DNA from: a virus | Length of the DNA: 64,000 bases | IMG/VR virus record: IMGVR_UViG_3300012943_000031 | Coordinates: 32,001-96,000 of that record | Reading direction: 5' to 3' (one strand) | Part shown: piece by piece, positions 15,853 through 21,473 of the stretch | How positions within the stretch are numbered: the stretch's first letter is position 1 | Layout of the letters: every line of letters begins with the position of its first letter | The notes under the pieces: generated by a model | The model's database searches: none | Told to the model about the DNA's origin: nothing | What the model saw: the letters and a program-made list of their open reading frames with translations, nothing else | Position numbers and translations under genes: made by a program

Positions 15853-15884
15853 TTTGGAATTTGCCAAATTACTTCGTATATTTG
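15853..15884 (+). promoter_or_regulatory. Bacteroidota sigma promoter P1 (tRNA operon 1)
   Basis: TTTG at 15853 and TATATTTG at 15877; matches -33/-7 consensus. Confidence 0.85.
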
Positions 15885-15888
15885 CATT

Positions 15889-15978
15889 ATGAATTTACAT
15901 CGTACACATACATGGTTTACTACTTGTCCCCAATGTCCATTTGGAGGAGAAGGGTGTTGTATGTGTGAAAATAAATAA
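15889..15978 (+). CDS. Attenuator leader peptide 1 (MNLHRTHTWFTTCPQCPFGGEGCCMCENK)
   Basis: Codons 4-18 encode only H,R(CGT),T,W,F,C,P,Q, the amino acids of the nine downstream tRNAs; contains antiterminator arm GAAGGGT. Confidence 0.85.
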   Translation: MNLHRTHTWFTTCPQCPFGGEGCCMCENK

Positions 15979-15998
15979 GTTTTTTCTTATTCATACTT

Positions 15999-16039
15999 AA
16001 AAACCCTTCAGTAATCCAATCACAACTGAAGGGTTTTTT
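15999..16039 (+). terminator. Attenuator terminator 1
   Basis: 14-bp stem AAAAACCCTTCAGT/ACTGAAGGGTTTTT plus U tract, just before tRNA-Pro. Confidence 0.9.
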
Positions 16040-16047
16040 CTTTTTAT

Positions 16048-16123
16048 CGGGTAGTGGGAGAATGGTTAGTCCACTATGTTTGGGGCATAGAAAATGTCAG
16101 TTCGAGTCTGATCTACCCGACCA
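16048..16123 (+). tRNA. trnP: tRNA-Pro(UGG)
   Basis: Cloverleaf; anticodon arm CTATG-TTTGGGG-CATAG; CCA encoded. Confidence 0.92.
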
Positions 16124-16129
16124 AATAAT

Positions 16130-16205
16130 GCCAGTGTAGCACAACAGGTAGTGCAGTACTCTTGTAAAGTAAAGGTTGCAAGTTCGATTCTTGTCACTGG
16201 CTCCA
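16130..16205 (+). tRNA. trnT: tRNA-Thr(UGU)
   Basis: GCCAGTG/CACTGGC acceptor; loop CTTGTAA; CCA. Confidence 0.92.
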
Positions 16206-16213
16206 AATTATAT

Positions 16214-16287
16214 GGCCGTATAGCCAAGTGGTAAGGCACATGTCTGCAAAACTTTGATCCCCAGTTCGAATCTGGGTACGGCTTCCA
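16214..16287 (+). tRNA. trnC: tRNA-Cys(GCA)
   Basis: GGCCGTA/TACGGCT acceptor; loop CTGCAAA; U73; weak anticodon stem. Confidence 0.85.
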
Positions 16288-16290
16288 TAT

Positions 16291-16365
16291 GGTGCACTAA
16301 CTCAATGGTAGAGTTCCTCCCTGAAAAGGAGGGTGTTCCCAGTTCAAGTCTGGGGTGTACCACCA
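16291..16365 (+). tRNA. trnF: tRNA-Phe(GAA)
   Basis: CCTCC-CTGAAAA-GGAGG; CCA. Confidence 0.92.
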
Positions 16366-16368
16366 CAT

Positions 16369-16439
16369 ACGGGTATGGTGAAATGGTATCATAACAGTCT
16401 CCAAAACTGCTGTTCAGGGTTCGAATCCTTGTACCCGTG
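16369..16439 (+). tRNA. trnW: tRNA-Trp(CCA)
   Basis: ACGGGTA/TACCCGT acceptor; CAGT-CTCCAAA-ACTG; G73. Confidence 0.9.
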
Positions 16440-16491
16440 CTTTTTCTTATTCCCACATTTCCCTGAGAAATCAAACTTGTGGGTTTCGTAT

Positions 16492-16565
16492 TGTCTCATG
16501 GTGTAATGGCAACATAAGAAGCTTTGACCTTCTTGTTTCAGGTTCGAGCCCTGATGGGACATCCA
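16492..16565 (+). tRNA. trnQ: tRNA-Gln(UUG)
   Basis: AGAAG-CTTTGAC-CTTCT; CCA. Confidence 0.92.
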
Positions 16566-16570
16566 AATAT

Positions 16571-16641
16571 TACCTTATAGTGTAATGGTAACACACCACT
16601 CTCTGAAAGTGTTGTTTAAGGTTCGAGTCCTTATAAGGTAA
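16571..16641 (+). tRNA. trnQ: tRNA-Gln(CUG)
   Basis: TACCTTA/TAAGGTA acceptor; loop CTCTGAA. Confidence 0.88.
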
Positions 16642-16643
16642 CT

Positions 16644-16717
16644 GTGACTATAGCTTAATGGTTTAGAGCCCTTGGTTGTGACCCAAGGTAGTGTCAGTTC
16701 GAATCTGATTAGTCACC
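16644..16717 (+). tRNA. trnH: tRNA-His(GUG)
   Basis: CTTGG-TTGTGAC-CCAAG; C73. Confidence 0.9.
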
Positions 16718-16722
16718 TAAAT

Positions 16723-16793
16723 GCCCTATTAGTATAATGGAAGTATCTGAGAATACGAATCTCAGGGTAGGAGTTCAAATCTTCTATAGGGTT
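16723..16793 (+). tRNA. trnR: tRNA-Arg(ACG)
   Basis: TGAGA-ATACGAA-TCTCA; GCCCTAT/ATAGGGT acceptor. Confidence 0.85.
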
Positions 16794-16820
16794 CTGGTAC
16801 ACTTCTTGCTATATGAAAGT

Positions 16821-16997
16821 ATGGTAATGAAAGGTAAAAATAAACTAGAAAGAATGGAATTACGTGCTGCTAAAAGATTTAACAGACGTTCTAAGAAAAT
16901 AAAATTCCATCTTACTAATGATTGGAGTTGGACATTTCCTATCCCTAAAGAGGGAATTCCAAAAATAGTTGAAGAAATATTTGGAAACGGCAAATAA
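16821..16997 (+). CDS. Small basic hypothetical protein
   Basis: 3' part of ORF 16737..16997 outside the tRNA; ATG at 16821 or 16827. Confidence 0.4.
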   Translation: MVMKGKNKLERMELRAAKRFNRRSKKIKFHLTNDWSWTFPIPKEGIPKIVEEIFGNGK

Positions 16998-19883: not shown

Positions 19884-19891
19884 AAGAAAAA

Positions 19892-19923
19892 TTTGGAATT
19901 TTATTCTCAGTACCGTATATTTG
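19892..19923 (+). promoter_or_regulatory. Bacteroidota sigma promoter for the suppressor tRNA/Pth unit
   Basis: TTTG 19892 and TATATTTG 19916. Confidence 0.85.
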
Positions 19924-19941
19924 TGAAAGTATACGGTACTG
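19908..19941. repeat. 12-bp perfect inverted repeat spanning the promoter -7 box and the 5' end of the suppressor tRNA
   Basis: CAGTACCGTATA (19908-19919) / TATACGGTACTG (19930-19941). Confidence 0.9.
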
Positions 19942-20006
19942 TAGTTTAATGGCAAAACAGCAGTCTCTAAAACTGAATAGTGTGGGTTCGATCCCCATCA
20001 GTACCA
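19935..20006 (+). tRNA. Amber suppressor tRNA (CUA anticodon)
   Basis: GGTACTG/CAGTACC acceptor; CAGT-CTCTAAA-ACTG anticodon arm; GTGGG-TTCGATC-CCCAT T arm. Confidence 0.88.
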
Positions 20007-20023
20007 CAATTAAACCAAATACA

Positions 20024-20500
20024 ATGAGTAAGTAGATGGAAATCCAGAAACTGGTAACTGTGACCAGAACTGACTTACCTGAAGGTTATCAGGCAGTACA
20101 GTCAACACATGCAGCAATTGATTTTGTTTTTGAACATCCTACACGTGCTGGCCCTTGGCATAAAAACAGTAATACGTTAGTGATGTTAACAGTAAAGGAC
20201 ACGAAAGGTCTCCTTCACCTAATGAGGAAGTGTGATTATCTGTCTATAGCTTATACTGTTTTCAGGGAACCAGATATTGGTAACCAAATCACAGCCATCT
20301 GTATGGAGCCTCATGAGGAGGTTTACAAGATGGTTAGTAAGCTACCTTTATTAATACCAAAAACACAATCAAATGAATACCAAGACACTATCAATCAAAG
20401 CCAAGTTAGCCAACCAAGTGAGAACAATCTTCTACAAGAAGTGGGATGTGACGAAAATCACAGAACACGAACAGAAGAGGATGTTGAGAGAGTTAGCTGA
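20024..20500 (+). CDS. Peptidyl-tRNA hydrolase Pth2-like; in-frame TAG at codon 4 (alternative start 20036)
   Basis: VTRTDL..GYQAVQSTHAA...LVML.V...FREPD.GNQITAIC.EP...KLPLL pattern of the PTH2 fold; ATG AGT AAG TAG ATG at the start. Confidence 0.75.
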
Positions 20501-20648
20501 GTTAACTAAAGAAGTTCACTATGAGTTAAATCTCTACAAGGGTAAGAGAAGAGATAAGAAAATACTCTTAGAAAAGAGGTTAGAAGCCCCTCAAACAAAG
20601 ACCATGAAGAAGAAACTGAAAGGTCACAGAAAAGAAATTTCAAAATAA
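20373..20648 (+). CDS. Small basic hypothetical protein
   Basis: 91-aa ORF with A-rich start context; overlaps the tail of the Pth ORF. Confidence 0.5.
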   Translation: MNTKTLSIKAKLANQVRTIFYKKWDVTKITEHEQKRMLRELAELTKEVHYELNLYKGKRRDKKILLEKRLEAPQTKTMKKKLKGHRKEISK

Positions 20649-20649
20649 A

Positions 20650-20681
20650 TTTGGAAATCGTGAAAAAAGGTTGTATATTTG
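20650..20681 (+). promoter_or_regulatory. Bacteroidota sigma promoter P3 (tRNA operon 3)
   Basis: TTTG 20650 and TATATTTG 20674. Confidence 0.85.
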
Positions 20682-20685
20682 CAGT

Positions 20686-20733
20686 ATGAAAATAACATCA
20701 ACATATAGTTCCTTGTCGTTACTCTATAGCTAA
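20686..20733 (+). CDS. Attenuator leader peptide 3 (MKITSTYSSLSLLYS)
   Basis: 10 of the last 11 codons are Ser/Leu/Tyr, matching downstream Leu, Leu, Ser, Ser, Tyr tRNAs. Confidence 0.85.
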   Translation: MKITSTYSSLSLLYS

Positions 20734-20787
20734 TAGAGCCGGGAATACTATGTGTCAAAAATAACTATCTTGATTTTACATAACATG

Positions 20788-20814
20788 ACCCGGTATTTCT
20801 ATACTGGGTTTTTT
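20788..20814 (+). terminator. Attenuator terminator 3
   Basis: ACCCGGTAT-ttct-ATACTGGGT-TTTTT before tRNA-Leu. Confidence 0.88.
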
Positions 20815-20821
20815 GTTTTAT

Positions 20822-20895
20822 GGCATTGTGATGGAACTGGGATACATACCTGTCTTAGAAACAGTTTTTTGTGGGTTCGAATCCCACCTTTGCCA
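20822..20895 (+). tRNA. trnL: tRNA-Leu(UAG), short variable loop
   Basis: CTGT-CTTAGAA-ACAG; canonical T arm; two acceptor mismatches. Confidence 0.75.
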
Positions 20896-20898
20896 CAT

Positions 20899-20977
20899 GC
20901 TCCTATGGTGGAACGGTATACACGTCAGACTTAAAATCTGATCTTAATTGATGAGAGTTCGAATCTCTCTAGGAGCA
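20899..20977 (+). tRNA. trnL: tRNA-Leu(UAA)
   Basis: TCAGA-CTTAAAA-TCTGA; GCTCCTA/TAGGAGC. Confidence 0.9.
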
Positions 20978-20978
20978 C

Positions 20979-21204
20979 AACAACCATAAACTATCGAGTT
21001 ACAACTTGCTGGGTACTTACTGGGTACTTGCGGGGTGTAATTAGGAAACTCAGCACATCTCTGCTTAAAATGGGAGGACTAGCAATCCGTTATTACCAAA
21101 GAGGATGAAACTCAAACAGACTAAGAAGGTGAGCAGTTCTATGAAGTCGGGTTAGAGGATTAGACAAATGATAGTTGATACAGAAAGCTGGTTATTGGGT
21201 TGTT
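20979..21204 (+). ncRNA. rnpB: Compact RNase P RNA
   Basis: P1 AACAACC/GGTTGTT, P2 AACTATC/GATAGTT, P3 TTACA../..TGTAA, CR-I-like AGGAAACTCAGC pairing with ACAGAAAGCTGGTTA (P4 with bulged U), AGACAAATG before the P2 3' strand. Confidence 0.8.
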
Positions 21205-21209
21205 AAATT

Positions 21210-21299
21210 GGTGGGCCCCAGATGACAGAGGTACTCCGTCTTGAAAACGGCTATAACGGTAATCATTCCGTTGTAAGGGTTGGACTCCCTTGCCCACCT
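21210..21299 (+). tRNA. trnS: tRNA-Ser(UGA), atypical
   Basis: GGTGGGC/GCCCACC; CCGT-CTTGAAA-ACGG; long variable arm; odd D arm and TTGGACT T loop. Confidence 0.75.
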
Positions 21300-21306
21300 C
21301 AAATAA

Positions 21307-21396
21307 GGAGAATAGACGAATATTGGTTTGTCGTAACTACCTGCTAAGTAGTTCTGTGTAACAGCAGTAAGAGTTCAATTCTCTTATTCTCCGCCA
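21307..21396 (+). tRNA. trnS: tRNA-Ser(GCU)
   Basis: ACTAC-CTGCTAA-GTAGT; long variable arm; G73 CCA. Confidence 0.88.
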
Positions 21397-21400
21397 ATAT

Positions 21401-21473
21401 GGGATAGACAGCAGGGCACTGTAGACGGTCTGTAAAACCGAACTATGTAGAGTTTCGAATACTCCCTATCCCA
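21401..21473 (+). tRNA. trnY: tRNA-Tyr(GUA), atypical D arm
   Basis: CGGT-CTGTAAA-ACCG; GGGATAG/CTATCCC. Confidence 0.78.

Follow-up and report, generated by a model that had tools for sequence, protein, structure and literature searches.

The tRNA genes of this uncultured crAss-related phage were examined within a window of 64,000 nucleotides (positions 32,001 to 96,000 of the IMG/VR virus record IMGVR_UViG_3300012943_000031). Three blocks of tRNA genes were identified in this window, each preceded by a promoter-like site of the form TTTG-N20-TAnnTTTG, a short ORF and an intrinsic terminator followed by a U tract (Table 1). Each ORF ends 20-53 nt before its terminator, and each terminator stops 9-13 nt before the first tRNA gene. 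These analyses confirmed the original prediction, which had described three promoter-leader-terminator-tRNA units whose leader codons list the downstream tRNAs. In addition, we found that unit 2 is interrupted by two ORFs (RNase H-like and HNH) and a 162-nt unassigned insert, and that unit 3 holds a 226-nt RNase P-like insert. The Tyr tRNA of unit 3 was seen only with relaxed ARAGORN settings. Notably, a fourth promoter of the same type drives the CUA suppressor tRNA directly, with no leader and no terminator, and this serves as an internal contrast to the three other units.

Table 1. Features of the three tRNA units and the suppressor tRNA gene (positions are those of the 64,000-nt window).
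Feature	Position	Strand	Details
Promoter-like site, unit 1	15853-15884	+	TTTG-N20-TATATTTG; leader ATG 4 nt after the -7 box, which suggests a leaderless mRNA
Leader ORF 1	15889-15978	+	29 codons, MNLHRTHTWFTTCPQCPFGGEGCCMCENK; control run HRTHTWFTTCPQCPF, codons 4-18 (15898-15942): H, R(CGT), T, H, T, W, F, T, T, C, P, Q, C, P, F
Antiterminator strand 1	15948-15956	+	GAAGGGU pairs with ACCCUUC at 16003-16009; in the no-ribosome fold 15903-15912 pairs with 15958-15967 (helix 1:2)
Intrinsic terminator 1	15999-16046	+	Hairpin 15999-16038 (arms 15999-16012 and 25-38, -18 kcal/mol) with U tract; ends 9 nt before tRNA-Pro
tRNA unit 1	16048-16794	+	Pro, Thr, Cys, Phe, Trp, Gln(uug), Gln(cug), His, Arg(acg)
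Promoter-like site, unit 2	16980-17011	+	TTTG-N20-TATCTTTG; A-rich 27-nt stretch between the -7 box and the ATG
Leader ORF 2	17039-17113	+	24 codons, MYLINMIVDRINGAEKSGSGLLLS; control run INMIVDRINGAEK, codons 4-16 (17048-17086): I, N, M, I, V, D, R(AGA), I, N, G, A, E, K; 17053-17067 pairs with 17099-17112 (helix 1:2)
Antiterminator strand 2	17090-17104	+	GGCUCUGG-A-CUUCUA pairs with 17138-17152 (14 bp, -23.8 kcal/mol)
Intrinsic terminator 2	17141-17177	+	Hairpin 17141-17174 (arms 17141-17151 and 17164-17174, -20.5 kcal/mol) with U tract
tRNA unit 2	17181-19339	+	Lys, Val, Arg(ucu), Asn, Met, 162-nt unassigned insert, Met, RNase H-like ORF (17880-18347), Gly, Gly, Glu, HNH ORF (18633-19031), Asp, Ile(uau), Ile(gau), Ala; ends at terminator 19342-19368
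Promoter and CUA suppressor tRNA	19892-20007	+	Promoter-like site 19892-19923; no leader, no terminator
Promoter-like site, unit 3	20650-20681	+	TTTG-N20-TATATTTG; ATG 4 nt after the -7 box
Leader ORF 3	20686-20733	+	15 codons, MKITSTYSSLSLLYS; control run YSSLSLLYS, codons 7-15 (20704-20730), with both AGY and UCN Ser codons and both UUR and CUN Leu codons; 20701-20709 pairs with 20747-20755 (helix 1:2)
Antiterminator strand 3	20737-20744	+	GCCGGG pairs with CCCGGU at 20789-20794
Intrinsic terminator 3	20787-20816	+	Hairpin 20787-20810 (arms 20787-20796 and 20801-20810, -13.5 kcal/mol) with U tract
tRNA unit 3	20822-21474	+	Leu(uag), Leu(uaa), RNase P-like RNA (20979-21204), Ser(uga)-type (21210-21298), Ser(gcu), Tyr(gua) (21401-21474); a terminator lies at 21511-21532

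Correspondence of leader codons and downstream tRNAs

Each of the three ORFs holds an unbroken run of codons drawn only from the amino acids of its own downstream tRNAs. The runs of 15, 13 and 9 codons cover 8 of 8, 10 of 10 and 3 of 3 amino acids, respectively, and together they cover all 20 amino acids. Arg is encoded by CGT in leader 1, whose unit carries the ACG anticodon, and by AGA in leader 2, whose unit carries UCU. To determine if this match could arise by chance, we scored all short ATG ORFs in the window and found that each leader ranked first of 615 for its own amino-acid set. In addition, none of 200,000 random partitions of the amino acids reached the summed run of 37. The composition bounds for the three leaders were 6e-8, 1e-2 and 1e-6.

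Predicted alternative RNA structures

In each leader a strand starting at about codon 17-20 can pair with the 5' arm of the terminator. Folding with a mask representing the ribosome footprint, a check suggested in the original prediction, indicated that the 5' arm is held by this antiterminator strand while the A site is on the control codons and is released once the ribosome has moved 1-2 codons past the end of the run. In seven leaders of related phages even the equilibrium fold switched to the antiterminator, and only when the A site lay in the control zone. However, for the three leaders in the window the full-length equilibrium fold kept the terminator at every ribosome position (0.81-0.98), and the switch must therefore be kinetic. 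Helix 1:2 was present in the full-length minimum-energy folds, although without any ribosome the truncated transcripts also preferred the antiterminator, and the untranslated state is therefore not clearly "off". The antiterminator of leader 1 is only 7 bp and is exposed again once the ribosome reaches the stop codon, and termination therefore needs the ribosome to be at codons 18-27 just when the terminator is made.

Comparison with related phages

Nine related phages keep this design while peptide order and helix sequences change, and three more phage lineages show the same codon roster. All 12 leaders checked in five phages are followed by an intrinsic terminator just before the first tRNA, which leaves no room for a promoter. 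In the five phages that keep the canonical TAnnTTTG box, the -7 box lies 3-5 nt before the ATG of leaders 1 and 3. Substitutions were in excess at third codon positions in all three leader classes.

Importantly, leader codons followed tRNA content in these arrays, as had been predicted. The own leader-unit assignment was the best permutation in 9 of 9 phages, and every tRNA amino acid had a codon in its leader (150 in both leader and tRNA set, 148 in the leader only, 0 in the tRNA set only and 162 in neither). Of 271 anticodons, 253 had a cognate codon in their own leader, and leader 1 always used CGN with tRNA-ACG and leader 2 always used AGA with tRNA-UCU. Some C34 isoacceptors (Gln-CUG, Lys-CUU) had no cognate codon in their leader. 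Intriguingly, in one related phage (L045) the Cys tRNA lies in the Lys/Val unit, and the leader of that unit has a TGT codon while the Pro/Thr leader has no Cys codon. Similarly, the phage L113 differs from the phage L101 by extra Ile(gau) and Arg(ucu) tRNAs and by extra Ile and AGA codons in the leader. The correspondence holds in only one direction, however, as some relatives keep control codons whose tRNA is missing from the unit (M, G, D and E in L007; V, R and N in L041; A and V in L046), and in L029 a mixed leader lies in front of a lone Cys tRNA.

The terminator and antiterminator strands were found to co-vary. Antiterminator complementarity was better than that of shuffled sequences in 21 of 30 leaders (median z about -3), and in the lineage of the window the strand always starts at codon 17-20 although its sequence differs from phage to phage. 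In an alignment of leader 2 from 10 phages, 74% of cells were paired in the antiterminator, against 29-52% when the partner was slid, with 6 pairs showing compensatory changes. In the same alignment, 78% of cells were paired in the terminator and 74% in helix 1:2.

Interpretation of the leaders as attenuators

Based on the sequence and computational data, we consider that these elements are most probably three ribosome-mediated (leader-peptide) transcription attenuators, one in front of each block of phage tRNA genes, and assign this reading a probability of roughly 0.8. The original interpretation is supported with respect to the attenuators themselves, although translation of the leaders, the kinetic coupling of ribosome and polymerase, and the response to tRNA depletion are inferred. 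We also note that a -7-like box in front of the RNase H-like ORF (17866-17873) could feed the distal part of unit 2 independently of the attenuator.

Several other explanations were considered, each of which we regard as unlikely. The short ORFs could encode functional micro-peptides, with the hairpins simply ending these small genes and the tRNAs made by constitutive leak-through. Leader 1, for example, could be a Cys-rich metal-binding peptide (CPQCP...C..C), its peptide is fairly well conserved across six phages (THTWFT.CPQCPFG..EGC..C), and a separate conserved mini-ORF (GGGCGCGGKK) shows that the phage does carry tiny genes. However, leader 2 keeps its amino-acid set while the order is permuted, leader 1 of L045 has lost every Cys codon, and the Cys-rich tail of leader 1 coincides with the RNA strands of helices 1:2 and 2:3. 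Nor does a peptide function explain the complete tRNA rosters, the Arg isoacceptor split or the co-varying antiterminators. That the match is a coincidence of composition has only the 58% of residue usage covered by set 2 in its favor, and is rejected by the statistics above and by the recurrence of the match in about a dozen phages of four lineages.

An RNA switch responding to a protein, or to direct tRNA binding as in a T-box, with the reading frame incidental, would be consistent with the alternative helices existing irrespective of translation. However, no T-box or other known riboswitch family was detected at E <= 0.1 in a covariance model search of positions 15000-23000, and substitutions show a third-position excess in the ORF frame. 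The amino-acid rosters, the start codon at a fixed distance from the promoter, and the match between the end of the control run and the edge of the ribosome-permissive zone make sense only if the frame is read. It is also possible, though doubtful, that the hairpins are processing or stability elements for the tRNA precursor, or constitutive partial terminators that set a fixed expression level, as they lie directly 5' of the first tRNA, where RNase P cuts, and those in the window are the equilibrium state under all ribosome masks. This does not explain why an upstream strand complementary to the 5' arm co-varies with it, why the ORF lists the downstream tRNAs, or why the same promoter drives the suppressor tRNA without any hairpin.

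Comparison with known regulatory systems

The closest counterparts are probably the multivalent leader-peptide attenuators of enterobacterial amino-acid operons (e.g., the ilvGMEDA leader with Ile/Leu/Val codons and the thr leader with Thr/Ile codons; also trpL, hisL, leuL and pheL), in which control codons in a short ORF, helices 2:3 and 3:4, and the position of the ribosome appear to decide the outcome and several amino acids can be sensed by one leader. In the phage, the regulated genes are tRNA genes and not biosynthetic enzymes, and the leader holds one to a few codons for each of up to 10 amino acids in place of runs of one amino acid. In addition, the roster equals the gene content of the unit, largely down to isoacceptors, and leaders 1 and 3 appear to have a leaderless start at a Bacteroidota-type promoter. 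No match to the Rfam His, Trp, Thr, Leu or Phe leader families was found at E <= 0.1 in positions 15000-23000. The pheM-pheST attenuator of E. coli would likewise regulate part of the translation supply chain in response to decoding of its cognate codons, although it is cellular, appears to sense one amino acid and regulates protein-coding genes.

T-box riboswitches also sense tRNA status and act by terminator/antiterminator choice in front of translation-supply genes, but a T-box binds one uncharged tRNA directly through a specifier codon and has no ORF, whereas the element here would sense many tRNAs indirectly, through ribosome speed. The trn operon of Anabaena sp. PCC 7120, a long accessory tRNA array, is induced under translational stress (PMC8421152). 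Control there is by a repressor protein, TrcR (PMC10272220), binding direct repeats at the promoter, and the words leader, attenuation and terminator do not occur in that paper. We found no published account of the control of tRNA genes by leader-peptide attenuators.

Proposed mechanism

We propose that host RNA polymerase starts at a Bacteroidota-type promoter and first transcribes the short ORF, which is leaderless for units 1 and 3 and has a short A-rich 5' UTR for unit 2. Codons 4 to about 18 of the ORF list the amino acids, and largely the isoacceptors, of the tRNAs that follow. If a ribosome is slow on any of these codons, it still sits upstream when the polymerase reaches the terminator, and the antiterminator strand is then free to pair with the 5' arm of the terminator so that transcription runs on into the tRNA genes. 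If all the codons are read quickly, the ribosome is covering that strand at the time the terminator is made, the terminator hairpin forms and transcription stops before the first tRNA.

The physiological signal is inferred, and could be a codon-usage mismatch, loss of host tRNAs during infection or tRNA-cleaving defenses. The role against host anticodon nucleases that was put forward in the original prediction is speculation and is not supported by any evidence here. If the proposed sequence of events is correct, the phage probably makes each block of tRNAs only when the corresponding codons are read slowly, and the result is an OR-gate over 8, 10 or 3 amino acids that is also a negative feedback on the supply of charged tRNA, host plus phage.

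tRNA Genes and Promoters of the Array

The window is part of a 106.8-kb IMG/VR virus record whose terminase is about 25% identical to those of Crassvirales and Flavobacterium psychrophilum phages, and no close relative was found in the GenBank phage collection. Of the 28 tRNA or tRNA-like genes in the array, 26 were identified by ARAGORN with default settings, a tRNA-Tyr was identified only with relaxed settings, and the last is a Ser(UGA)-type tRNA. Four sites in this region match TTTG-N20-TAnnTTTG and share an extended TTTGGAA...GTATnTTTG form. Three of these sites are followed by a short ORF, an intrinsic terminator and then tRNAs, while the fourth drives a CUA (amber suppressor) tRNA directly. 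This suppressor tRNA is followed by ATG AGT AAG TAG ATG, in frame with a PTH2 peptidyl-tRNA hydrolase gene (PF01981). The long ORFs of the window are intact under table 11, so there is no general TAG recoding.

Coordinates of the tRNA region, of the strands complementary to the terminators, and of other features in the window and in contigs of related phages (L001, L007 and L042)
Sequence	Coordinates	Strand	Feature
Window	15783-15830	+	Mini-ORF, MTILKGGGCGCGGKK, just upstream of the leader 1 promoter
Window	15853-21474	+	tRNA and tRNA-like genes with their promoters and leaders
Window	15948-56	+	Strand pairing with the 5' arm of terminator 1
Window	17090-17104	+	Strand pairing with the 5' arm of terminator 2
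Window	17615-17776	+	162-nt unassigned insert between the two tRNA-Met genes
Window	17880-18347	+	RNase H-like protein (PF04308, phrog_11311) embedded in tRNA unit 2
Window	18633-19031	+	HNH homing-endonuclease gene
Window	19892	+	Fourth TTTG-N20-TAnnTTTG site
Window	19935-20500	+	CUA suppressor tRNA and PTH2 gene
Window	20737-44	+	Strand pairing with the 5' arm of terminator 3
Window	20979-21204	+	226-nt RNase P-like insert between tRNA-Leu(uaa) and the Ser(uga)-type tRNA, inside attenuated unit 3
Window	21210-21298	+	Ser(UGA)-type tRNA
Window	21401-21474	+	tRNA-Tyr
L042	5330-5570, 6900-7055, 10740-10940		HNH homing-endonuclease genes
L001	3700-4130		HNH homing-endonuclease gene
L007	459-515		Mini-ORF, MNTDMNYRRRRYIIPLGN, inside unit 2

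The array also contains several inserts. The RNase P-like insert aligns over the whole archaeal RNase P model, with 35.5 bits against a gathering score of 84 (E = 9e-9 in a 361-base search and 0.015 in an 8-kb search), and carries AGGAAAcUC and ACAGAAaGcuGGuUAU core motifs. No RNase P-like hit was found in four related arrays (L044, L045, L046 and L049). The ends of the unassigned insert look like a tRNA acceptor stem and T arm, but neither ARAGORN nor Rfam assigns it. Relatives of the RNase H-like protein lie inside tRNA arrays of 17-28 genes in most of 80 viral contigs.

Correspondence between Leader Codons and Downstream tRNAs

The leader 1 peptide, MNLHRTHTWFTTCPQCPFGGEGCCMCENK, precedes tRNAs P, T, C, F, W, Q, Q, H and R(acg); the leader 2 peptide, MYLINMIVDRINGAEKSGSGLLLS, precedes K, V, R(ucu), N, M, M, G, G, E, D, I, I and A; and the leader 3 peptide, MKITSTYSSLSLLYS, precedes L, L, S, S and Y. 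The unbroken runs of codons drawn from each leader's own set are 15, 13 and 9 codons long, respectively, and each run covers every amino acid of the set. Among the 615 ATG ORFs of 12-45 codons in the window, each leader ranked first for its own set, with the next best runs being 11, 11 and 7. In addition, none of 200,000 random partitions of the amino acids reached the summed run. The correspondence was also seen at the codon level, as Arg is CGT before tRNA-ACG and AGA before tRNA-UCU, Ile uses both AUA and AUU, Ser both AGY and UCN, and Leu both UUR and CUN.

Terminators and Alternative Helices

Every leader is followed, 20-53 nt after its stop, by a hairpin of -13.5 to -20.5 kcal/mol with a U tract, which ends 9-13 nt before the first tRNA. 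The tRNAs can therefore only be reached by read-through, although a -7-like box inside unit 2 may bypass the attenuator. Full-length folds gave a 1:2 helix that covers the control codons, plus the terminator.

To investigate the dependence of these structures on ribosome position, we folded the transcript up to the terminator loop while masking a 28-nt ribosome footprint. The 5' arm of the terminator paired with an upstream strand as long as the A site was on the control codons, and became free when the ribosome was 1-2 codons past the run. In seven leaders of relatives, the equilibrium fold of the complete RNA flipped to the antiterminator, and only for A sites inside the control zone. In the window, however, the terminators win at equilibrium for every ribosome position, so the choice must be kinetic, and without a ribosome the truncated RNA also prefers the antiterminator. 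The leader 1 antiterminator is 7 bp and is uncovered again at the stop codon, so timing between ribosome and polymerase is required. The first 2-3 codons, and the tail after the run, are not roster codons. This fits the geometry, as a ribosome on the early codons does not open helix 1:2, and the tail encodes the antiterminator strand.

Leaders of Related Phages

The flanking exonuclease and the RNase H-like gene inside unit 2 served as anchors for identifying related arrays. They brought in L001, L007, L008, L029/30, L041, L042 and L044-L049 of the same lineage (L numbers denote the relatives and other arrays compared), as well as other arrays. DNA pattern scans of viral contigs for the leader 1 peptide and for the leader 2 terminator found only the L001 contig. 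Relatives with the same exonuclease (36-52% identity), namely L005 (CXWK01028456.1), L031 and L034-L036, have no tRNA genes within 10 kb upstream. The array with its attenuators is therefore an accessory module in this phage group.

We chose the leader ORF without reference to tRNA content, as the longest ATG ORF ending at the terminator. With that choice, the own leader-unit pairing was the best permutation in 9 of 9 phages. No tRNA amino acid lacked a codon in its leader, with 150 in both, 148 in the leader only, 0 in the tRNA set only and 162 in neither. Some relatives keep roster codons whose tRNA is gone. Of 271 anticodons, 253 have a cognate codon in their own leader. The leader 2 peptides are permuted between phages (INMIVDRINGAEK, IVVDNGMARGIEKD, IVNIAIMNGGDRNEK) while the set is kept.

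Notably, in L045 the Cys tRNA sits in the Lys/Val unit. That unit's leader alone has a TGT codon in its control run, and the Pro/Thr/Phe/Gln/His/Arg/Trp leader has no Cys codon at all. In L029 only tRNA-Cys remains, and its leader has lost His, Arg, Trp and Phe but keeps five Cys codons. The L007 mini-ORF has four consecutive Arg codons (AGA CGA AGA AGG) and lies directly before tRNA-Arg(acg) and tRNA-Arg(ucu). It may be a secondary Arg-specific leader, although we saw no clear terminator.

Terminator sequences differ from phage to phage, and the upstream strand follows them. The complementarity of this strand beat shuffles in 21 of 30 leaders, with a median z of about -3, and the strand starts at codon 17-20 throughout the lineage. 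In a 10-phage alignment of leader 2, the antiterminator had 74% of cells paired against 29-52% when slid, with six pairs showing compensatory changes, while the terminator had 78% paired and helix 1:2 had 74%. Substitutions were in excess at third codon positions. The -7 box lies 3-5 nt before the ATG of leaders 1 and 3 in the five phages that keep the canonical TAnnTTTG box (the window, L001, L008, L041 and L046).

Three further lineages carry one long leader each: L053, L096/97, and L101-106 with L113-115. Each leader contains every amino acid of a 12-17-tRNA unit and, in the last lineage, avoids A, D, E and G. L113 has extra Ile(gau) and Arg(ucu) tRNAs compared with L101, and extra Ile and AGA codons in its leader. 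In lineage D (L101, L113 and L114) the roster signal is strong, but we could not show a significant antiterminator.

The tRNA array of crAss001 (L040) showed no leader/terminator/tRNA junction with our scan, and the lone tRNA-Arg of L037 follows an ordinary gene terminator. ORFs read through tRNA-like sequence (GSSP and RFES motifs) in L050, L052, L058 and L068 were false positives of the scan and were excluded. The HNH genes are inserted within tRNA arrays; in L042 they sit between the attenuator and the first tRNA, so the scan misses its leaders, and in L001 one follows a truncated tRNA-Arg(acg) copy. The GGGCGCGG(T)KK peptide of the mini-ORF in the window is conserved in L001, L041 and even in L005, which has no tRNAs, and is fused in frame to leader 1 in L044 and to the end of leader 2 in L049.

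Interpretation and Implications

The best reading of these data is classical attenuation applied to tRNA genes, acting as an OR-gate over the amino acids of a unit and as a negative feedback on the supply of charged tRNA; translation of the leaders and the response to tRNA depletion are inferred. On this reading the elements work like the ilv and thr multivalent leaders, but they match no Rfam leader or T-box model. The nearest published case of a stress-induced tRNA array is the Anabaena trn operon, which is controlled by the repressor TrcR at the promoter (PMC8421152, PMC10272220). Our literature searches for leader-peptide or attenuator control of tRNA genes or arrays found nothing.

More tentatively, we speculate that codon-roster leader attenuators are a general, evolvable device by which large phages of Bacteroidota-like hosts keep their tRNA supply in balance, with each tRNA block reporting on itself through ribosome speed and the roster being re-written as tRNAs are gained, lost or moved. 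The system would raise phage tRNA output whenever host tRNAs are depleted, including by tRNA-cleaving defence nucleases, although the role against anticodon nucleases proposed in the original prediction has no evidence here. If this speculation is correct, one attenuator in this phage would also gate a minimal RNase P-like RNA, so that tRNA synthesis and tRNA processing are induced together.

tRNA genes are normally thought to be controlled at the promoter, by growth rate or the stringent response, and phage tRNA arrays are usually treated as constitutive cargo. Here, the phage appears to measure decoding speed codon by codon and to answer with the matching tRNAs, which would be a direct feedback between the product (charged tRNA) and its own transcription. 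It extends the classic trp/his attenuation logic to RNA genes and to rosters of up to ten amino acids. The system gives a readable sequence signature that predicts which tRNAs are co-transcribed, and offers a natural sensor for single-codon decoding rates in Bacteroidota. It also makes testable the idea that phage tRNAs are supplied on demand, against codon mismatch, host tRNA decay or anticodon nucleases. The same signature is present in at least four phage lineages, so the design is not a curiosity of one genome.
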